DNA from: Omnitrophica WOR_2 bacterium GWF2_43_52
Lineage (GTDB): Bacteria > Omnitrophota > Gorgyraeia > Gygaellales > UBA12090
Reading direction: 5' to 3'
Length of the DNA: 64,000 nt
NCBI GenBank assembly: GCA_001805445.1
Contig: MHGF01000025.1
Location: forward strand, 338-64,337
This document shows, piece after piece, positions 1-60,930 of this stretch. How positions within the stretch are numbered: position 1 is the stretch's first letter; every line of letters begins with the position of its first letter. The position numbers were made by a program, and so were the translations under genes. The notes under the pieces are model-generated. The model was not told the origin of the DNA. It searched no databases and was given only the letters and a program-made list of their open reading frames with translations.

Positions 1-558
1 TTAAAACAGTGCCGATGGACGACAGGGACTTTGCAAAATGGCTCAAATTTTCCTCATTTTGGCGAAAACGCCAAAATTGACTTCTCCGAAGTCAAAGATA
101 AGCTGAAAATTAACCAAGAAAAACAATCAAAACTGACGGACGCTTATCTGGAAAATTTGCTTGGTGAAGATGTCTATCGCGAGAAAAATTCAAGCCTTAG
201 AGATGAAGAAGAATCTTTGAAGAAACTCCTTGCAGGATATGAGCTTAGAGAGATTGAACGAGAACGGTCAGAGGGCTATATAAACAGAGTAAAAGAGTTT
301 CTTGATGGCTATGATGATAGCAAAGAAAAGATAGACTTTGCTACTAAAAAAAAACTTGCCGGGCTGCTTTTTAAAAACATCAAAATCGCCTCATGCCTTG
401 GCGGCCGTTTGCCCCAAAAAAGAATTTCATTTTCTCTTTTTGCCCCCTTTAATTTTTTGTTTTTAGAAACCGAAAGAAAATCGCAATGTCAAAAGAATCA
501 AAAGCTTATAAAAATTTGCCAAAAAAAGTCTACATCCGTACCTTCGGATGTCAGATGA
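1..558 (+). CDS. 3' part of a larger gene that enters the window from upstream. The C-terminal coiled-coil region resembles large serine recombinases. The true stop is uncertain because the reading frame stays open into the miaB start.
   Basis: Frame 1 is open from position 1 with no start codon in the window. The translation '...LTDAYLENLLGEDVYREK...FATKKKLAGLLFKNIKI' matches the pattern of the serine-recombinase C-terminal coiled-coil and final beta-strand. Confidence 0.35.
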   Translation, partial: LKQCRWTTGTLQNGSNFPHFGENAKIDFSEVKDKLKINQEKQSKLTDAYLENLLGEDVYREKNSSLRDEEESLKKLLAGYELREIERERSEGYINRVKEFLDGYDDSKEKIDFATKKKLAGLLFKNIKIASCLGGRLPQKRISFSLFAPFNFLFLETERKSQCQKNQKLIKICQKKSTSVPSDVR

Positions 559-1736
559 ACCTCAGGGATTCTGAAGTAATTGCGGGGCTGCTTTTGGAGG
601 GGGGATTTGGGGTGACGGAAGAAGAGGAAAAGGCTGACGCGGTTTTGTTTGTGACTTGTTCTGTGAGGCAGCATGCTGAGGATAAGGTTTGGTCGGAGAT
701 TGGGCGGTTTTCTAAAATGGTGCCTAAGCCGGTTATCGGGCTGGTTGGTTGTATGGCAGAAAACTATAAAGACAAAGCTTTTAAACGGATGCAGGGGATT
801 GATGTGGTGGTGGGGACGAATAATATCGGGGAAATTCCATATTTATTAAAAGAGGTGTTTGCTCATCAGCTCATTAGCTCATTAGCTCATCAGCCTTTTT
901 TAGCGGTAAGTAAAAAAGAGCGCGATGAGGTTGTGTATGAGTCTATGTTTCGTCAGGAAAAAGACAGTAGCTTTGTGGTGATTTCAGAGGGATGTGATAA
1001 TTTCTGCTCTTACTGTGTAGTGCCGTATGTGCGGGGAAGGCTAAGACATCGGAATTATAAGAATATTATCGCGGAGATAGAGCAAAATATAAAACAGGGA
1101 ATTGAGCGCGTTACTTTGCTTGGCCAGAACGTGAATGCGTATCAGTTCAAATCTGTCAGTCAATATCAGGAAATACGGATATTACCCCCTCCCTTGCCCT
1201 CCCCACATCAGGGGAGGGCATATCGTTCGCGGTCAATAGTTAATTTTATGCAATTATTAAAGCTGGTTAATGATATAGACGGTTTACGAGAATTCAGTTT
1301 TGTTACCTCTCATCCGAAAGACGCCTCAGTTGAGCTTTTTGAGGCTATGGCTAAGTTAGATAAGCTCAAAAAATATTTACACTTGCCATTTCAGTCAGGT
1401 TCGAATAGAATATTAGAGTTGATGAAACGCGGCTATACCAGAGAGCGCTATCTTCAATTAGCAGGAGAATATCGTAAGATAGTGCCCCAAGGTGAGCTTA
1501 CCACAGATATTATCGTGGGTTTTCCGAGCGAGACGGAAGAGGATTTTAAAGAGACCCTTGAACTCGTGCAAAAGGTAAGATTTAACGGCGCCTATATCTT
1601 TAAATACTCGCCCCGCCCGCATGCTAAGGCGGGCGAATTACCTGACGATGTGCCAAAGATAGAGAAAGAACGAAGGCATAGGATTTTATTAGAAACCCAA
1701 AAAAAGATTTCTAAGGAGTTAAAAGCTAAACAGTGA
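486..1736 (+). CDS. miaB: tRNA-i6A37 methylthiotransferase, a radical-SAM enzyme of the MiaB/RimO family
   Basis: An N-terminal MTTase domain with 'FGCQMN' and a radical-SAM 'CDNFCSYCVVP' motif. It sits next to miaA. It contains two in-frame repeat insertions, described in the findings. Confidence 0.8.
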   Translation: MSKESKAYKNLPKKVYIRTFGCQMNLRDSEVIAGLLLEGGFGVTEEEEKADAVLFVTCSVRQHAEDKVWSEIGRFSKMVPKPVIGLVGCMAENYKDKAFKRMQGIDVVVGTNNIGEIPYLLKEVFAHQLISSLAHQPFLAVSKKERDEVVYESMFRQEKDSSFVVISEGCDNFCSYCVVPYVRGRLRHRNYKNIIAEIEQNIKQGIERVTLLGQNVNAYQFKSVSQYQEIRILPPPLPSPHQGRAYRSRSIVNFMQLLKLVNDIDGLREFSFVTSHPKDASVELFEAMAKLDKLKKYLHLPFQSGSNRILELMKRGYTRERYLQLAGEYRKIVPQGELTTDIIVGFPSETEEDFKETLELVQKVRFNGAYIFKYSPRPHAKAGELPDDVPKIEKERRHRILLETQKKISKELKAKQ

Positions 1737-2488
1737 AACAAAAAATATTTTTGACTTTTCTACTTTCTACTTTCTACTTGCTACTCTCTACTCTCTACTG
1801 CTATGCCGAAGGCTTACACAGAGCTGAGGCTCTTTACTTGCAAGGCAGCTATAGCGAAAGCATTGAAGAATGCGCGGAAAGCATTTCCCGCGGGAAGGAT
1901 ATGGATAGGGCATACTATCTTTTGGGGCTTAATTACCTTAAGCTGGGTGATACTCAAAAGGCGCGTGAGAAACTGAAAATCATGATAGAAAATTATAAAG
2001 AGAGTAACTATAGCGCTATTGTCCAAGTGCTCTATGCAGACAGCTATTTTATAGACCAGGAATACGCGACCGCGCAAAGCCGTTATGAGGAAATTCTAAG
2101 GACTAATACGGCACTAGCTAACAGCGCTTATTTAGGCTTGGCCCGCTGTGCTTTGAAAACTGGGGAGTGGGAAAAGGCAAAAGGCTATGCCGAGTTGTTA
2201 GCGCAGAAATTTCCTAAGAGTTTAGAGGCACGTATGGCTAAGGAACTTTTTAGCGGGCAGGAATTTTTCTTTACAGTGCAGGTGGGAAGTTTTGCAAGCC
2301 TTAAAAATGCCGAACGCCTAATGAGTAAATTGCAGGGAAAATACTTTGACGCATTTATTGACCAAGTTCCTTCAGGACAAAATCTCCTCTACCGTGTACG
2401 GGTTGGAAAAGTAAAAACTCGCCAGGAAGCGTTGGCGCTTAAGAATGCGTTGGAAGCAGAAGGGTATCCTACCAGAATTTTCCCTTAG
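1733..2488 (+). CDS. TPR-repeat plus SPOR-domain envelope protein (septal peptidoglycan binding)
   Basis: A signal peptide or N-terminal transmembrane segment, TPR-like helices, and a C-terminal SPOR domain ('FFTVQVGSFASLKNAE...YRVRVG'). Confidence 0.65.
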   Translation: MKQKIFLTFLLSTFYLLLSTLYCYAEGLHRAEALYLQGSYSESIEECAESISRGKDMDRAYYLLGLNYLKLGDTQKAREKLKIMIENYKESNYSAIVQVLYADSYFIDQEYATAQSRYEEILRTNTALANSAYLGLARCALKTGEWEKAKGYAELLAQKFPKSLEARMAKELFSGQEFFFTVQVGSFASLKNAERLMSKLQGKYFDAFIDQVPSGQNLLYRVRVGKVKTRQEALALKNALEAEGYPTRIFP

Positions 2489-2491
2489 TTT

Positions 2492-3448
2492 ATGGCAAAG
2501 CCGGAATTACGCCCCGTAAAACAAAAGCCACAAATTATTTTTTTAGTCGGCCCTACCGCTATCGGTAAAAGCGCTCTTGCCATATCATTAGCCAAAAAAA
2601 TCAGCGCTGAAATCATATCTCTTGATTCCATGCAGATTTATAAAGGCTTAAGGATTGTAAGCTCTCAACCTGACATGGCGATGCAAAAGAGTATTCCTCA
2701 CCATTTACTGGGCTTTGTTTCTCCAGGAGATAAGTTTGATGTTGCCACATACAGAAAATTAGCACTGCAAAAAATAAGGCAGGTCCATAAAAGAAAAAAA
2801 ATCCCCTTGTTTGTAGGCGGGACCGGCCTTTACATGAGTGTGCTTATTGATGGAATCTTTGAGGAAGTAAAGAAGGATGAAGCCTTGCGTAAAAAGCTCT
2901 ACCAACAAGAAAAAAAACGAGGAAGCGGATTTTTGTATAATAAATTACTGGCGGTGGATAGAGAGGCTGCTGCCAAGATTCATCCTCATGATACGCGTAG
3001 GATTGTTAGGGCCTTAGAAGTCTATACGCTCACCGGAAAACCTATTTCAGAATTATGGCGTAAGAGAAAAGGCTTAAGTGAAAAATATGAGGTAAGGATA
3101 TTCGGGCTCAATAAAGACAGGCAGGAGCTCTATAATGATATTAATGCGCGTGTGGAAACAATGTTTAAGGAGGGGTTAGTCGCAGAAGTAAGGAAAGCAG
3201 GTAAGAAAAAGATAAGCCTTACCTGTAGCCAGGCAATCGGCCTTAAGGAAGTGCGGGGCTATTTAGAGGGAGGCTATGATTTAGCTTTCGCTAAAGAGTT
3301 GATGAAGAAAAATACCCGCAATTATGCCAAAAGGCAGTTGACGTGGTTTAGGAAAGATACGCGGATTCTTTGGTTAGATGTAACAAAGGTAAGGATTGAA
3401 GATGCGATTATCAATGAGTTAGTCTATGCTGAAAACACTTTTTCATAA
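2492..3448 (+). CDS. miaA: tRNA dimethylallyltransferase
   Basis: P-loop 'GPTAIGKS' and MiaA conservation throughout. Confidence 0.85.
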   Translation: MAKPELRPVKQKPQIIFLVGPTAIGKSALAISLAKKISAEIISLDSMQIYKGLRIVSSQPDMAMQKSIPHHLLGFVSPGDKFDVATYRKLALQKIRQVHKRKKIPLFVGGTGLYMSVLIDGIFEEVKKDEALRKKLYQQEKKRGSGFLYNKLLAVDREAAAKIHPHDTRRIVRALEVYTLTGKPISELWRKRKGLSEKYEVRIFGLNKDRQELYNDINARVETMFKEGLVAEVRKAGKKKISLTCSQAIGLKEVRGYLEGGYDLAFAKELMKKNTRNYAKRQLTWFRKDTRILWLDVTKVRIEDAIINELVYAENTFS

Positions 3449-6684: not shown

Positions 6685-9600
6685 ATGAAATCACATTTGC
6701 TGCATAAAACTATTTCCCTATGGGTATCTTTTTGCCTCATTTTTACCCAATTCGCATTTGCCCAAGGGGTAGCCGAACTTAATGTATCAGAGTACTTTAG
6801 GCAAATACATACTAATGTACCTTTTGGTGATAAGCTGAGGCCGCCTCAGCTTAGGTATTTCTCTTATGATACTGTCACAGATGATTATAGGATTATTTTA
6901 GATAAGGGGGCAATAAAAGAGATATCAGAAACCGACGCGGCAGAAAAAGCGAAAACACTTTTAAGTTACTTTCTGATAGGGGTAACCCTCCCCAATGATA
7001 CATTCTGGGTCAACCTGAGGCCCGATGCTCCGGATACTATCATAGACTTTGAATTAGAGAAAACCGATATCGGGAGGATTCTTCTGGAAGCCGACCTGCA
7101 ACTCAAGAAAGATACGGCTCAATGCACCTCACCTCAAACGCCAGATGGTAAGCTCTATTGGGATAAGCTCTATCAGAAGGCAGGTGAGCTCTTTGGCTCT
7201 GAGAATATTACCATTCCTACCTTAACCCGTCCGTGGATAGTACCAGGGGAGATAATCGTAAGAGAAACAGATAATTCCGCCTACATTTACAAGGCAAGCC
7301 TCAAGGTATTGTTAGAAGAAGATTACCTCAAAAGCTCTCAGCTTTCAGCTGTCAGCGTTCAGCAGTATAATTTTAAAGACGAACGGCTAAAAGAGTTGAA
7401 TGAATACTCCACACAGCTTATCAGAGAACTTATTATTCCAAAGCTGACCAGAGAGGTTAATACTTCCCAAAGGTATGCCGCCTTGCGGCAGGTATTCTTT
7501 TCATTAGTGCTTTCTCGATGGTTTAAGGAAAGATTCCGGGGAAAGCAGGGCGCCTATGCGAAGCTAATTGACAGTAAGAATTTAACTAACCTTATTTCGC
7601 AAGAGCAGTGGTCAAAAAATACCTATTTTAATGAATATAAGGAATCATTTCAGCATGGCGAATATAATATAAAGGAAGGTGTAGCCACTCCTTATGGGCA
7701 AACGATACGGAGTTATGTGAGCGGAGGAATTGAATTGACAGGCGCAGCCAGCCCTTTAAATAGTAATAGCTTTAGGGCTGGAGAGGGCCAAAAAATTACT
7801 AACACAATGCTTACTCTGGCAGGAAATGGAAAAAATCCAAGCCTGCAATTTCCTGCGGTCACATCTTCGCCTTTAGGAAAGCCTGAAGAATATAACAATA
7901 AAACAAACAATATAATTAAAGAGATACGTGATGAGGCTTATAAGGTTCACAGTGGCCTCAAAACTATAATAGAAGCATTAAGGCTTAAAATTACTACAGA
8001 GGATAAAGCACATCAAGACATTGAAGCGGCATTGGATAATCTATCAAGTTGGCCGGGTATCTTGCCTGAAAGTACCGATATTAAGGCTATGGCTAAGGAA
8101 ATAGCGAAAGCATTAAGAATATTGAATAAATATTATCTTAGAGATTTAAAAGGGATACTTGAAAAAAGTGGTTTTGAGGAGCAGTTCTCTGCCATGATAC
8201 TGCGTATGGAAAAAATTATTCCCTTAAAAGAGCAGATTCCCGAAGCGCTTGATAACTTTATGGTTAAGTATAAAAGTAGTATTAACCAAGAGCAATTCCA
8301 AAAAGTAGAAGAACTGCGCCTCAAGGAAAGGCAAGAGTTAGAGAATAAGTACGATGATTTTATCCGTTTATGCGCGTATATGGAGGACCTTGTATCGCAG
8401 CTACGAGAACATGCACAGGAACCTGCGAAAGATTCGCTTTATTTTGATTTGGATGAGTGGCTTTCTTTGGAGTTTAGGGCGCAAATAGAAATGATTGAAA
8501 TAGTGGCTGTGGAAGCTGTGAAGGAAATCCATGGTAAGTTTCAGGAAAAAGTAAATGGAATGGAGCGGCAAAGGGAGGAGTTGGAAAATGATATTAAAAA
8601 TATTCACGACAAAATGAGCGCGGGTGTTTTAGAGCTTATTAATAGGTATAACGATTTAGCGCTGCCTTCATTTATGCCAGCGGGTGATGCCGCCGTTGTA
8701 AGCGAAGATGCGTTCAGCCTATTATTTTTAGAAAACAAAGATTTCAACCACTTGACGCAATTTCAATTTCTTTTGCTTTTTGCAAGTTATGCCTTGGGAA
8801 ATTACGAAATTACAAGGGATAAGAATATACAAAAAGCGTTTAAGGAGAAATCTTTTGCTGAAGGGTTAATTACATTATATAAGAGCGTTTATGATCTAGA
8901 TGAAAGGACAAAGAGCTTTGCTAAAGAGCCTTATACTCCAAATTATAATAAAGCTCTTAATCGTATTCTTATTGAAATGCAGAAAAGAAGTGAAAACTTA
9001 GAGAATAAAATCAGCGGTAATTTGGAATATGCCGTTACTAATGATATGCCTTTTGTGAGATTGCCATTTAGCTTAAGACAAGATAAAGATAATGATTTTA
9101 TAAGGAGCAATCTGCCTGAAGCGATAAGCAGGCTTGATAATTATTCCAAAGAGCTTGTAGCAGGATATGGTAAGTCAAGAGATAACAGTATGAGAAATCA
9201 TTTATTTTTATTAAACGTAATAGCTGTCAGCGCGAAGGTTGAGATGGAGTTGTTGATGAGTGAGATTAACGGCAATGCTGAAGCTGCGTCTCCCTTGAGG
9301 CAAGAGAATCAGGAGCAAGATGAGTTAGAAAGGATTAAGAAAGAGTTTCTTCCGCCTCTTGGCGCAGGCAGGCTTACTTTTAAAGATGCAGCAAATAAAA
9401 TTGTTCATGAAATTAGCCAAGTCATAATGGAAAAGATCAATTCTACTGATGAGAACGCAGCATCAAAATTATATAGGGAGAAGCCGTCACCTTACAGTAG
9501 CCTCAAAACGTACCTAGAGGCTTTAGGCTTTACTATTAATGAAAAAGTGGACATGCAGAAGCTGCAAAACGAGATAGAAGCTCTTATCGGGGTAATAAAG

Positions 9601-11433: not shown

Positions 11434-11562
11434 GATTAGAGAAGAATTTTTTACGTTTACCGTTCACCGCTTACCGTGTACCGTTATAATCGTACATACT
11501 CTACGGTAAACGGTTCGCGGTTAACGGTACACGAAACGTGATTCTTCAAGAAGGATAGGTAA

Positions 11563-18736: not shown

Positions 18737-18912
18737 AGAAGAGAACAGAAGACAGAGTACAGAAAACAGAAATTAGTAGAAATATACAGCAAAGCGAGGA
18801 AATTGATTGAGCTCATTGTTGGTAGAATTTCCACGAATTTCAATAAATTTCTGCATATTTCTGTAATCTGTTCTCTGTTATCTGTTATCTAACCGAACGA
18901 AGTGAGGTTATA

Positions 18913-19562: not shown

Positions 19563-20863
19563 GCGCGTTTTGCGGTTTGCGATATAACCCCACGCTCGTT
19601 AAAAAAATAGAAAAAGTAGTATGCCCGCCCTATGACGTTATTTCCCCGGAGCAGCAGAATAAACTCCATGCATCAAGCCGCGATAATTTTATCCGTCTCA
19701 TTTTAGGTAAGGCAAAGCAAAGTGATACCTCCAGGCATAATAAATATACCCGCGCGGGAGATTTCTTAAAGGAGGCTATCAGAAAAAAAGTATTCGTTTG
19801 CGACAGCCTGCCAGCTATCTATCTCTATGAACAGGAGTACAGGGTAGCCGCTCAGGGCTATAAGCGCCTTGGTTTTATTGCCCTTCTTCGGCTTGAGCCG
19901 ACAGGAAAAGGGGTAGTGTTTCCTCACGAGAAGACTTTTTGTAAGCCCAAACAGGACAGGCTTTCCCTGCTTAAGGCGACGCAGGCAAATCTCTGCCCTA
20001 TCTTTGGGCTCTATGATGCCGATGATGCCGCTGTCGACGCGCGCCTCAGAAAGCATGCCAAGGCAAAACCGCTCTATGATTTTTTCTTTGAGGGAATAAG
20101 AAATAAACTTTGGAAAATAGAAGACCGGGAATTTATCCGCGGGCTTACGCAAGCGATGGCCGATAAACAGATTTTTATCGCTGACGGCCATCATCGCTAT
20201 GAAGTAGCCAGCCTTTATCATAGGCTAGCGCGCAAGCGTACCGTGGCGCGCTCGCGGAGTGATTATGTGATGATGTATTTTTGTAACCTCAGGAACCAAG
20301 GCCTCAGAGTGTTGCCAACGCATAGGGTAGTACGTAATGTCAGCCAGGAAATTATTTCTCAACTACCGGCATTGTTAGAAAACTATTTCAAGCTAAGCCC
20401 TTGCGCGAATTTACCCGAGCTTCTTCTCCAGCTTAAAAAAAGGGCAGGCCGGCGCGCCTTCGGACTTTTTTTAGGAGCAAACCGGTTTTACCTGCTTGAT
20501 GTTAGGGCTACTCCGGCAAAAAAGAAACCCGTGGTTTCCCAAGGAGATTATTGCTATAATAACTTAGATGTTGTTTTGCTGCATAGTTTAGTTTTTAGCA
20601 AACTACTGAAACTAAAAAAGCAGCATCATCACGATGCGGATATTGTGTATGCCCGGGATGAAAAGCAAGCCGTTAGTTTAGTAAAAAGCAAAAAATACCA
20701 GGCAGCATTTTTTATGAATCCGCCAAGCCCTCGGGAAATCAGCTCTATCGCGCGCTGCTTTAAAAAGATGCCGCATAAGTCAACGTATTTTTATCCTAAG
20801 CCGGTTTCAGGGCTGGTGATAAACATGCTCAAGAAAGAGCTGCCAGTAGAGAGTAGAGAGTAG
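19550..20863 (+). CDS. DUF1015-family protein
   Basis: N-terminal 'FCGLRYNP...PPYDVIS' is characteristic of DUF1015. Confidence 0.6.
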   Translation: MAEISAFCGLRYNPTLVKKIEKVVCPPYDVISPEQQNKLHASSRDNFIRLILGKAKQSDTSRHNKYTRAGDFLKEAIRKKVFVCDSLPAIYLYEQEYRVAAQGYKRLGFIALLRLEPTGKGVVFPHEKTFCKPKQDRLSLLKATQANLCPIFGLYDADDAAVDARLRKHAKAKPLYDFFFEGIRNKLWKIEDREFIRGLTQAMADKQIFIADGHHRYEVASLYHRLARKRTVARSRSDYVMMYFCNLRNQGLRVLPTHRVVRNVSQEIISQLPALLENYFKLSPCANLPELLLQLKKRAGRRAFGLFLGANRFYLLDVRATPAKKKPVVSQGDYCYNNLDVVLLHSLVFSKLLKLKKQHHHDADIVYARDEKQAVSLVKSKKYQAAFFMNPPSPREISSIARCFKKMPHKSTYFYPKPVSGLVINMLKKELPVESRE

Positions 20864-20915
20864 AAAGTAGAAAGTAGAAAGTAGTAACTAAATTACTTAC
20901 TACTCTCTACTATTT
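20845..20915. terminator. Hairpin built from AGTAGAR heptamer tandem repeats and their inverted copy, between the DUF1015 gene and accD
   Basis: 'agtagagagtagagagtagaaagtagaaagtagaaagtag' ... 'cttactactctctactattt'. Confidence 0.45.
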
Positions 20916-20938
20916 ACTCCCGAAGGTAGTGAGGGAAG

Positions 20939-47037: not shown

Positions 47038-47637
47038 ATGAGAAAACAAAGAAAAGCAAAAGTTGAGAGAAGAACAACAGAAACCACTATTGGCCTCGCG
47101 ATTAACTTAGATGGCAGGGGGAAATCGAAAATTAAAACGCCGATAGGTTTTTTGAGCCATATGCTTACCCTTTTTGCTAGACACGGATTATTTGACCTTG
47201 AGCTAAAGGCTACTGGGGATACAGAGGTGGATCTTCATCATACGAATGAAGATATTGGGATATGCCTAGGCCAGGCGCTCCAAAAGGCGCTCAAGGATAA
47301 GGCAGGTATCAGAAGGTTTGGTTTTGCCTCGGTGCCTATGGATGAGGCGCTTGTAGAACTAAGCCTGGATATCAGCGGAAGGCCTTATTTAGCGTTTATC
47401 GTTAACCGTTTACCGTTTACCGCTACTGGGAAAGAATACAGTATGAATTATTTAAAGCAGTTCCTGCAGGCACTGGTGAATACCTCGGGGATAACCATGC
47501 ATGTGGAAATCCTCTATGGGGAAGATTTGCATCACTGTATTGAAGCGGTGTTTAAGGCTTTAGGAAGAGCTTTACGGGAGGCGGTAAGTATCGATAGCCG
47601 TATTCAAGGAATTTTATCTACAAAAGGAAGATTGTAG
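47038..47637 (+). CDS. hisB: Imidazoleglycerol-phosphate dehydratase
   Basis: IGPD motifs ('HHTNED'). Confidence 0.85.
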   Translation: MRKQRKAKVERRTTETTIGLAINLDGRGKSKIKTPIGFLSHMLTLFARHGLFDLELKATGDTEVDLHHTNEDIGICLGQALQKALKDKAGIRRFGFASVPMDEALVELSLDISGRPYLAFIVNRLPFTATGKEYSMNYLKQFLQALVNTSGITMHVEILYGEDLHHCIEAVFKALGRALREAVSIDSRIQGILSTKGRL

Positions 47638-47659: not shown

Positions 47660-47815
47660 CAAAATAACCAAACACCAATTTCCAATAACCAAATAATAAC
47701 CAATGTGCCAATGACCAAACTATTTGTTTATTGGGTATTGTCACGCAAAGCTGGTTTCTTGTCTCTATGAGATAATGGGCAGGTGAGTTTATTTGGTTAT
47801 TGGTGATTTATGCTC
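47660..47815. repeat. MITE-like long imperfect hairpin repeat (copy 1 of the 'AACCAAACACCAATTTCCAATAACCAAA' family)
   Basis: A 35-bp block nearly identical to 52822-52860. The arms CCAATAACCAAATAA and TTATTTGGTTATTGG pair. Confidence 0.6.
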
Positions 47816-50023: not shown

Positions 50024-50845
50024 ATGTTAACCAAAAGGATTATACCCTGCCTTGACGTTAAAGACGGAAGGGTGGTAAAAGGAGTCAAGTTTTTAAATTT
50101 AAAAGACGCGGGTGACCCGGTTATCATTGCCAAACGCTATGAAGAAGAGCAGGCCGATGAACTTGTATTCCTGGATATTACCGCAAGCGCGGAAAACAGA
50201 AATATTATTCTCGATGTGGTCCGGCGCACCGCGGAAAATGTCTTTATGCCGCTTACTGTCGGAGGAGGGATACGCGCTATAGCTGACATCCGCGCGTTGC
50301 TGAATGCCGGCGCGGACAAGGTTTCTATCAATACGGCGGCAGTAAAGAGGCCGGCGCTCATCAAAGAGGCAGCGGATAAATTCGGCAGTCAGTGTATTGT
50401 GGTGGCGATTGACGCTAAAAGGGTCAATAGTCAATGGCCTATGGCCAATGGTCAAACGAAGAAGCTATCGACTATCGACTATCGATTATCGACTAAGAAG
50501 TGGGAAGTGTATATTAACGGAGGCAGAACGCCCACAGGGTTAGATGCTGTAAAATGGGCGAAGAAGGCTGAAGCCTCAGGAGCGGGTGAAATACTTTTGA
50601 CCAGCATGGATGCTGATGGGACAAAAAACGGTTATGACCTTGAGCTGACGAACGCTATAACAACTGCAGTGAATATTCCACTCATCGCATCGGGAGGCGC
50701 GGGGAAAAAAGAGGATTTTTATACTGTATTGACTGAAGCAGGCGCGGATGCCGCGTTAGCCGCATCGCTTTTTCACTATCAGGAGTTACGCATTAAAGAG
50801 GTTAAGAGCTATTTACAGAAAAAAGGAGTATTGGTGCGATGGTAA
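50024..50845 (+). CDS. hisF: Imidazole glycerol phosphate synthase cyclase subunit
   Basis: HisF motifs. It contains an in-frame insert of about 21 aa. Confidence 0.85.
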
Positions 50846-52821: not shown

Positions 52822-52965
52822 GAAAATAACCAAACACCAATTTCCAATAACCAAACAATACCCAATCACCAATAGCCAAATTTCACGCATGCTGTTTGGT
52901 TATTGATAATAGGGTATTGGGGTTTGTTTGATTATTGTATCTTGATAATTGGTTATTTCGGGCTC
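52822..52965. repeat. MITE-like hairpin repeat (copy 2 of the 'CCAATAACCAAA' family)
   Basis: Shares a 35-bp block with 47662-47697 and has a complementary TGTTTGGTTATTG arm. Confidence 0.6.
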
Positions 52966-52990: not shown

Positions 52991-53236
52991 ATGTCAGTAG
53001 CAATCAGGATGAGGAAAGTCGGTAAAGGTATAAAGAAAAATTTCTATTTTAGGGTTGGGGTCATTGACGAGCAAAAAAGCCGGGATGGCAAAATGCTGGA
53101 AGATATCGGCGTCTATGAGCCTGCCAAAAAAGAAAATAATTTCAGGATTAACAAGGAGCGCTTTGACTACTGGAAATCAAAGGGCGCGGTTATTTCTGAT
53201 ACGGTAAGAAGCCTGGTTAAGAAAAGCAGTAAGTAG
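52991..53236 (+). CDS. rpsP: 30S ribosomal protein S16
   Basis: 'VAIRMRKVGKG...FYFRVGV' and a GAGGAGG RBS. The start was moved to the internal ATG at 52991. Confidence 0.85.
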   Translation: MSVAIRMRKVGKGIKKNFYFRVGVIDEQKSRDGKMLEDIGVYEPAKKENNFRINKERFDYWKSKGAVISDTVRSLVKKSSK

Positions 53237-53294
53237 TAAGTAGAGAGTAGATAGTAGTAAGTAGATAGTAGCAAGTAAAAGAAAGGAAGATCAA

Positions 53295-58870: not shown

Positions 58871-58987
58871 CCCCACCTACCAATTCAACCTCGTAGGTTG
58901 TAGGAAAACGTCGACGGGTAATTCTGACAACCTACGAGGTTGAATTGGTTGACAACCTACGAGGTTGAATTGGTTTTGGAAGATGAG

Positions 58988-60829: not shown

Positions 60830-60851
60830 TTAACTAAAGATATTGTGACTA

Positions 60852-60930
60852 CTGATAAAGGTAAACCCAGAGTAATCTGGGGGCGCAAAGCAATGGGGTC
60901 CTGATAAAGGATTGCCCGGCTGCCAAAGGG
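60852..60930 (+). ncRNA. Candidate c-di-GMP-I (GEMM) riboswitch aptamer
   Basis: 'AAAGGUAAACC-CAGA-GUAA-UCUGG-GGGCGCAAAGC...GGGGUCCUGAUAAAGG...GCCCGGCUGCC' compared with the Vc2/GEMM core 'GGCAAACC-stem-GNRA-stem-GGACGCAAAGCC...'. Confidence 0.55.

Follow-up and report, generated by a model that had tools for sequence, protein, structure and literature searches.

The opa genes of Neisseria carry variable CTCTT tracts in the coding sequence of the leader-peptide region, and switch at a rate of ~1e-3 per generation (PMC3960869). In Haemophilus influenzae, hmw1A and hmw2A are associated with (ATCTTTC)n, which occurs in 13–24 perfect copies between promoters and grades transcription (PMC8262952). 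Heptameric arrays are also over-represented in some bacteria, the cyanobacterial STRR, GGGGAYT in Nostoc and GGGAATC in Xanthomonas being examples, and polymerase slippage has been proposed to account for them (PMC4692102). Leader-peptide coding repeats and genome-wide heptamer arrays are, then, each already known. The present analysis concerns a stretch of 64,000 nucleotides (nt) from Omnitrophica WOR_2 bacterium GWF2_43_52 (contig MHGF01000025.1, positions 338 to 64,337; hereafter 'the window'), and specifically a heptanucleotide tandem array inside the gene for an envelope protein with TPR and SPOR domains, which lies between genes for a MiaB-like methylthiotransferase and for MiaA. The array was interpreted, with a probability of about 0.6, as a coding copy of a dispersed, STRR-like family of heptamer arrays that occupies a permissive site within a predicted signal peptide; it would be old, remodelled in frame, and stable in this lineage.

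The array was called by Tandem Repeats Finder (TRF) with a period of 7, 6.1 copies, 91% matches, a score of 65 and no indels. Positions 1759–1799 read ctactttctactttctacttgctactctctactctctact, letter for letter as quoted in an earlier note on this DNA (the sequence-only reading), which had described a tandem heptamer tract in reverse AGTAGAR orientation; both the sequence and the TRF result agree with that description. The unit took the forms CTACTTT, CTACTTG and CTACTCT (the reverse complement of AGTAGAA/AGTAGAG), and these three variants interrupted the homogeneity of the tract. TTTCTAC, repeated 3.3 times, was followed by one G variant and then by CTACTCT, repeated 2.7 times; two perfect runs resulted, one of 23 nt (1757–1779, 3.3 units) and the other of 19 nt (1781–1799, 2.7 units). 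In the CTACTYT orientation there was no stop codon in any of the three frames. Interpretations of the tract as an RNA structure, promoter, terminator or inverted repeat were each tested and ruled out: no promoter, terminator or inverted partner was found at the tract, a search of Rfam produced no match there, and the RNA was less structured at this place than shuffled sequences (z = +1.1).

The tract sits 24–66 nt into the open reading frame (ORF) at 1733..2488, and its in-frame translation contains FLLSTFYLLLSTLYCY. It codes for residues about 9–23 (FLLSTFYLLLSTLYC), which form the hydrophobic region (h-region) of a predicted signal peptide. The N-terminus consists of MKQK (n-region M/V-KQK), the h-region IFLTFLLSTFYLLLSTLY and CYA, followed by EGLHRAEALY. 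Cleavage was predicted before E26, the c-region C-Y-A having small residues at -1 and -3, and the hydrophobic core of the h-region, at ~20 amino acids (aa), had a Kyte-Doolittle hydrophobicity of 1.7–2.1. On inspection, then, the basic n-region, hydrophobic h-region and small -1/-3 residues typical of Sec export and signal peptidase I were all present. An alignment of 36 orthologues showed that A25, the predicted cleavage-site alanine, was conserved in at least 90% of them, and that L28, A31, E32, Y35 and L36 were conserved or invariant; all orthologues began with MKxK, followed by a hydrophobic stretch and by the conserved cleavage context around A25. Beyond the tract, the first in-frame ATG or GTG occurs at residue ~57, and the sole earlier alternative start is a TTG at residue 36, within conserved sequence. 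A lipoprotein signal was ruled out, there being no lipobox before Cys23, which was itself not conserved. The tract is coding, to judge from its translation, and encodes the predicted h-region.

The domains of the 251-aa product (100% identical to OGX14709.1 of Omnitrophica WOR_2 bacterium GWF2_43_52) point in the same direction. Pfam identified a C-terminal SPOR domain (5e-17) together with TPR families, weak NCBIfam matches were to YbgF (TPR) and to FtsN/RlpA (SPOR), and the PDB match was to the SPOR domain of RlpA. The TPR part was nearest to YbgF of the Tol-Pal system, and the SPOR part to FtsN/RlpA. Such a domain make-up indicates a probable periplasmic, peptidoglycan-associated protein, which as such would have to be exported; export and cleavage of the TPR-SPOR protein are predicted features of the locus.

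Comparison with orthologues showed that the array belongs to this gene family as a whole. The peptide sequence of the h-region was not conserved among them, while its 7-nt periodicity was. Lag scores were taken over the 95 nt that precede the conserved N-terminus of the mature protein, and lag 7 was the top period in h-region DNA at 9/9 independent orthologous loci (36–62% amino-acid identity); at each locus the score lay in the top 0.8% or better of locus positions, and in most it was the single best. The units themselves (Table 1) were unrelated to one another. Among 75 distinct N-termini of the family, peptide identity at lag 7 was 0.117, against 0.070±0.005 for shuffled sequences (z≈9), and other lags gave 0.058–0.095. 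The sequence-only reading had held that a repeat present in orthologues only as a conserved amino-acid sequence would speak against its proposal of a switch; what was found is the opposite, i.e., DNA periodicity conserved and peptide sequence not. The lag-7 excess was absent from a control family of SurA-like proteins in this phylum (z≈-0.3), and only one of the ~6 signal peptides in the window carried an array, the remaining ~5 being at background. Heptamer arrays were rejected on this basis as a general trait of Omnitrophota signal peptides.

Closely related sequences showed that the array turns over. When orthologues were grouped at 90% identity or more, members of a cluster had almost the same mature protein but leaders that had changed wholesale. 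Two such loci, L037 and L038, were 97.5% identical outside the array and 85% identical inside it, at equal length, the array of L037 having been homogenised to CTATGGA x3 with its length unchanged. Another pair, L039 and L040 (about 95–97% identical), differed in two respects: a GC-rich mini-hairpin of 21 nt inserted in the array, and a heptamer array of 42 nt in the linker of MiaB. All of these changes kept the reading frame.

A periodicity retained through such turnover might itself be selected, either as a heptad face on an uncleaved signal-anchor helix that self-associates, or as a binding or regulatory site, in DNA or RNA, at the miaB/TPR-SPOR junction. Its specificity to this gene family and its survival despite sequence turnover would fit, and a heptanucleotide array necessarily gives a heptad peptide, in which small or polar residues recur (S/T/Y, T/G/Y/W, C/G). 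However, the period was 7 nt and not merely 21 nt, which selection on the peptide would not yield, and the conserved A25 cleavage context suggests that the h-region is removed. The low RNA structure of the tract and the lack of a promoter, terminator or inverted partner likewise disfavour a regulatory site, and the orthologue units ranged from G-free to G-rich, which argues against a shared nucleic-acid ligand. Selection of this kind was considered very improbable.

The tract at 1757–1799 was one of several arrays in the window. When period-7 tracts were defined by at least 16 of 21 lag-7 matches, 10 were found, compared with ~0.2 in shuffles; periods 5, 6 and 8–11 gave 0–3. The pattern AGTAGARAGTAGARAGTAG, with up to three mismatches, matched the window 17 times against an expectation of 0.10, and every match fell at 1760–1799 (minus strand), 20845–20918 or 53225–53278. 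This AGTAGAR family accounts for three arrays (1757, 20845 and 53223); other recurring unit families were TTTACCG/ACGGTAA, with four (11450, 11503, 47388 and 51245), and AATAACC, with two (47663 and 52825). The reverse complement of 1757–1799 reads AGTAGAG x2, AGTAGCA, AGTAGAA x3, and corresponds unit for unit to the array at 20845–20884 with one mismatch. Similarly, the first 30 nt of the two AATAACC arrays, which are 5 kb apart, were identical (47663–47692 and 52825–52854; AATAACCAAACACCAATTTCCAATAACCAA), which implies copying rather than independent slippage. Taken with the near-identical unit order at 1757 and 20845, this identity implies that arrays, or parts of arrays, have spread as copies.

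Most intergenic copies in the window occurred as inverted pairs (11451–11536, 18740–18890, 20845–20918, 47676–47740 and 52824–52958), with arms of 20–65 nt that were 75–88% complementary and could form long hairpins between genes (for example hsp20/clpB and dnaJ/Zn-ribbon). The array at 20845–20884 also provides the stop codon (20863) of a DUF1015 gene, its inverted arm being at 20894–20918. The copy at 1757, by comparison, is intragenic and has no inverted partner. Other arrays lay in frame within hisF (50432–50495), the IGPD gene (47388–47422) and a 1240-aa ORF (7333–7363). A tandem array of 7-nt units passes through all three frames, so that any stop trinucleotide in the circular unit closes them all. 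The AGTAGAA orientation is closed in this way, and the complementary one, CTACTTT, is open, with L-L-S-T-F-Y-F as its translation. All intragenic arrays of the window stood in the open orientation. Their effects on the host proteins were not uniform: in hisF, adjacent (CAATGGC)n and (CTATCGA)n arrays give ~24 extra residues in a loop of HisF (the Pfam match covers 251 residues over 227 profile positions), while (TTTACCG)n in the IGPD gene fills native positions and adds no length.

The correspondence between 1757 and 20845 raises the prospect that the h-region was recently overwritten, having been copied in, inverted, from a dispersed AGTAGAR element such as that at 20845, through gene conversion, recombination or transposition, with each lineage re-seeding the site from the heptamer family currently active in its genome. 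The shared order of variant units, with its one mismatch, would be expected on this account, as would the spreading of arrays as copies at 47663–47692 and 52825–52854. Orthologous loci provided comparable observations: the signal-peptide unit GCGGCTT of L035 is a 6/7 reverse complement of the AAGACGC array in miaB of the same locus, the signal peptide of one relative (LSTIDYGLWT) uses a unit family found in hisF of the window, and the array types of L029, L037 and L038 were discordant with the phylogeny of the gene outside the array. Nonetheless, a two-block pattern of two variants is simple, and slippage could make it twice independently. The flanks showed no similarity and no target duplication, no associated transposase was seen, the signal-peptide units of L030, L032 and L033 were unlike other arrays in the retrieved flank, and some of the mosaicism could be chimerism in metagenome assembly. 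Recent overwriting is regarded as distinctly unlikely.

The sequence-only reading had proposed that the tract might be a slipped-strand phase-variation switch. In its full form, the proposal is of an opa-like contingency locus, in which slippage of the heptamer would turn production and export of the TPR-SPOR protein ON and OFF. The geometry suits this: the repeat is inside the ORF, and a unit of 7 nt is not a whole number of codons, so that gaining or losing one shifts the frame, as in an opa-type locus. Simulated changes of -2, -1, +1 and +2 units gave truncated products of 26, 78, 33 and 85 aa, while ±3 units stayed in frame (244 and 258 aa). Further points in favour are that the array is gene-specific and persists with changing units, as expected from selection for mutability and not for sequence, and that arrays were homogenised between close strains (L037/L038), hence unit turnover does occur. 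The long, homogeneous tract expected of a contingency locus was, however, not observed. With 6.1 copies at 91% match, the perfect runs (23 and 19 nt) amount to just 3.3 and 2.7 units, in comparison with the longer tracts of hmwA and the variable tracts of opa.

No variant in unit number was found among 14 distinct contigs or assemblies from different samples, stability being judged on assembly consensus sequences; the tract was identical to the base throughout. These contigs were retrieved both by the exact protein and by the neighbouring miaA, and retrieval anchored on miaA presupposes no intact TPR-SPOR reading frame. In L036, a relative whose DNA is 88.8% identical across 1160 nt, all six units were retained in unchanged order, and the array differed by one substitution. 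A protein scan of metagenome contigs added two distant loci only, none of the same species. A fixed repeat number, which the sequence-only reading had named as evidence against a switch, was thus observed at the level of assembly consensus, in the 14 assemblies and in the relative at 89% identity.

Two short orthologue calls (239 and 234 aa) were considered as frameshifted OFF alleles and rejected. The short call at L037 was an in-frame artefact of start calling. L038 (protein P0130) is out of frame in its assembly, and to this extent suits a contingency locus; P0135 has the same truncated 234-aa call. However, the cause is a change from T8 to T7 in a homopolymer just 5' of the array, in an orthologue of 48% identity, with unit number unchanged (L038 ~930–945, compared with L029 1320–1335), and it may be either real variation or an assembly error. 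A difference in the length of miaB (393 vs 416 aa) was also attributable to a different start call, on identical DNA.

Nor did the gene resemble an accessory or surface-variable gene. It is a conserved, single-copy TPR-SPOR gene in a miaB-X-miaA-hflX cluster across Omnitrophota (X being this gene), and the order was kept in every orthologous locus examined. It is translationally coupled to miaB, its GTG start at 1733 overlapping the miaB stop as GTGA, and miaA begins 3 nt past its own stop. Arrays of the same kind, moreover, stand in hisF, in the IGPD gene and in intergenic regions, where switching is implausible. On balance a contingency locus was judged unlikely. The earlier interpretation thus stands in part. 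Its tract, its view that this encodes the hydrophobic core of the TPR/SPOR signal peptide (from the in-frame translation and conserved cleavage context) and its dispersed family, with further members at 20845 and 53228 (from the AGTAGARAGTAGARAGTAG search), were all upheld; the phase-variation switch was not, given an interrupted tract, the lack of variation, a conserved syntenic gene, and arrays in hisF and IGPD.

The preferred interpretation, that the tract is a coding member of the dispersed family at a permissive site, takes as its starting point what was observed: the repeat and its place in coding sequence, the periodicity across the gene family, and the stability in this species. The stop-free CTACTYT unit translates to Leu, Ser, Thr, Phe and Tyr and, with open frames and residues of this kind, six units (42 nt, 14 codons) can serve as the h-region of a Sec signal peptide. 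The h-region would tolerate an array because it demands only hydrophobicity and length. The presence of an array at this position may be a long-standing property of the TPR-SPOR gene family, remodelled over time by slippage, conversion between arrays, and small insertions, always in multiples of 21 nt; the unit sequence would drift while the 7-nt periodicity persisted. In the present lineage, the interrupted and stable array would act simply as the core of the signal peptide. That slippage or conversion is the remodelling mechanism, and that the changes are near-neutral, are the probable rather than the observed elements of this interpretation, which agrees with the known over-representation of heptamers and with the polymerase-slippage hypothesis (PMC4692102).

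Several points weigh against it. The main weakness is that the array is gene-specific; a neutral model of a permissive site leaves unexplained why one site keeps an array phylum-wide, and it is this failure that keeps the three alternatives above alive. A persistent periodicity also implies ongoing turnover of units, and turnover should yield out-of-frame intermediates, as a contingency locus does. The assemblies compared were nearly clonal (miaB was 100% identical), and are therefore a weak clock for repeat stability. The more distant comparison, with L036, had 2 differences in the first 100 nt at its 5' end, against about 11% overall, and this end may be chimeric or recombinant. Finally, export and cleavage of the protein are themselves predictions from sequence. 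A bolder reading posits a selected, Omnitrophota-wide heptanucleotide cassette in the signal peptide of the miaB-miaA TPR-SPOR gene, with conserved periodicity, acting as a hypermutable module of which the copy in the window is a quiescent allele. If true, the cassette would permit reversible loss of export of a cell-division or envelope protein, or rapid re-coding of its leader, and slippage or conversion from dispersed arrays would keep renewing it. This was thought to be a long shot.

Related structures were observed elsewhere in the cluster. In the MiaB linker (UPF0004 to radical-SAM), the window has an 8-nt repeat, GCTCATYA x4 (861–894; peptide AHQLISSLAHQ), and the 42-nt heptamer array of L040 is at the same place (~470–515), being absent from L039; the linker is a second array hot spot, in a housekeeping gene. 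An (AAGACGC)n heptamer array also lies within miaB of L035 (314–351). GC-rich mini-palindromes within coding sequence, recalling the small dispersed repeats known from Nostoc, occurred in MiaB of the window (1186–1221; GCCCTCCCC-ACATCA-GGGGAGGGC, within an insertion of ~25 aa), in L039, where the 21-nt CCCCGCC-AAC-GGCGGGG element is within the signal-peptide array (~1258–1278), and in L038, as a hairpin at the 3' end of miaB (~845–885). Heptamer arrays were found at the very start of miaA, directly after the TPR-SPOR stop, in L033 (10805–10840, (ACCGCAA)n) and L030 (2127–2160, (CTAAAAC)n), and the gene boundaries of this cluster seem to attract arrays. Many metagenome contigs of the window's species (those behind L003–L010, L019 and L020) end in miaB, or upstream of or inside the TPR-SPOR gene, which suggests that local repeats break assemblies.

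Table 1. Coordinates of the features in the window, and heptamer units at orthologous loci.
Feature	Location	Strand	Evidence
TPR + SPOR periplasmic/envelope protein gene (251 aa)	1733..2488	+	ORF list, Pfam, NCBIfam, PDB
Predicted Sec-type signal peptide, residues 1–25	1733..1807	+	Read from sequence, orthologue conservation, hydrophobicity
Heptanucleotide tandem array	1757..1799	+	TRF, lag-7 scans, translation, perfect runs
AGTAGAR sister array, opposite orientation (2 x AGTAGAG, 4 x AGTAGAA)	20845..20884	+	
Degenerate AGTAGNR array, intergenic, upstream of YajC-like ORF + secDF	53223..53281	+	Pfam (secDF)
MiaB-like radical-SAM methylthiotransferase gene, upstream	486..1736	+	Pfam UPF0004 + Radical_SAM, orthologue synteny
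miaA (IPP transferase), downstream	2492..3448	+	Pfam IPPT 7e-81
Orthologue unit GGTTACY	L027, L039/L040		
Orthologue unit CTACGTG/CTATCCG	L028		
Orthologue unit GACTATT	L029		
Orthologue unit CTGTCAA	L030		
Orthologue unit GGACTGT	L031		
Orthologue unit ATTTGGN	L032		
Orthologue unit TTACCAG	L033		
Orthologue unit GCGGCCT	L035		

Two further features of the window stand apart from the arrays. A c-di-GMP-I riboswitch was matched at 60850–60927 (+ strand; Rfam RF01051, 55 bits, E = 4e-8), and downstream of it comes a series of genes with the prepilin-type N-methylation motif (61164.., 61878.., 62761..). A perfect 25-nt direct repeat occurs twice at 58925–58975 (TGACAACCTACGAGGTTGAATTGGT), at the junction of a SurA-like gene and the next ORF.

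A search of the literature found no report of heptamer arrays in Omnitrophota, and none of a signal peptide whose nucleotide periodicity is retained among orthologues despite replacement of the sequence. The STRR-like system in this phylum writes itself into proteins, including the core of a signal peptide, the MiaB linker, a loop of HisF and, in orthologues, the N-termini of MiaA. That one gene family keeps a 7-nt-periodic leader phylum-wide, with turnover of its sequence, makes it a clean natural example of a signal peptide derived from low-information repeat DNA. A real switch would extend contingency loci beyond host-adapted pathogens to a groundwater phylum that is uncultured and free-living or episymbiotic, but the evidence does not support it. 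There is a practical warning also for annotation and assembly, since start-codon miscalls, contig breaks and chimeras cluster at heptamer arrays.

Among the known systems, the array resembles opa in being a pyrimidine-rich repeat, 5' in the coding sequence, that specifies the hydrophobic core of a signal peptide with a unit that is not a multiple of 3, such that a change in units shifts the frame. However, the tracts of opa are perfect repeats whose number differs both among strains and inside a strain, and they belong to a multi-copy family of surface adhesins; the Omnitrophota array is interrupted, invariant in the assemblies examined, located in a single-copy, conserved envelope gene, and part of a repeat family that is mostly intergenic. 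With hmw1A and hmw2A it shares a T/C-rich heptanucleotide unit and association with an envelope protein gene, but it differs in being coding, in having ~6 imperfect copies, and in showing no variation among assemblies.

The resemblance to STRR-type arrays concerns the genome as well as the tract: a 7-nt excess over other periods, recurring unit families, a mainly intergenic distribution, often as inverted pairs, and differences in length and sequence between related genomes. The arrays of the window nevertheless come from another phylum, their units differ from the STRR and GGGGAYT sequences given in PMC4692102, and they are not G-quadruplex-forming. Elhai et al. (2008) reportedly described small dispersed repeats (SDR) in Nostoc, tiny hairpins that insert into heptamer arrays and into genes with the frame kept; the 21-nt insertion in the signal-peptide array of L039, an orthologue and not the window's own tract, is like these in form. 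The tract in the window, being intragenic and without an inverted partner, works like a member of an STRR-like family that is atypically placed; no report was found of one coding site that, as here, holds an array across the whole orthologous family.

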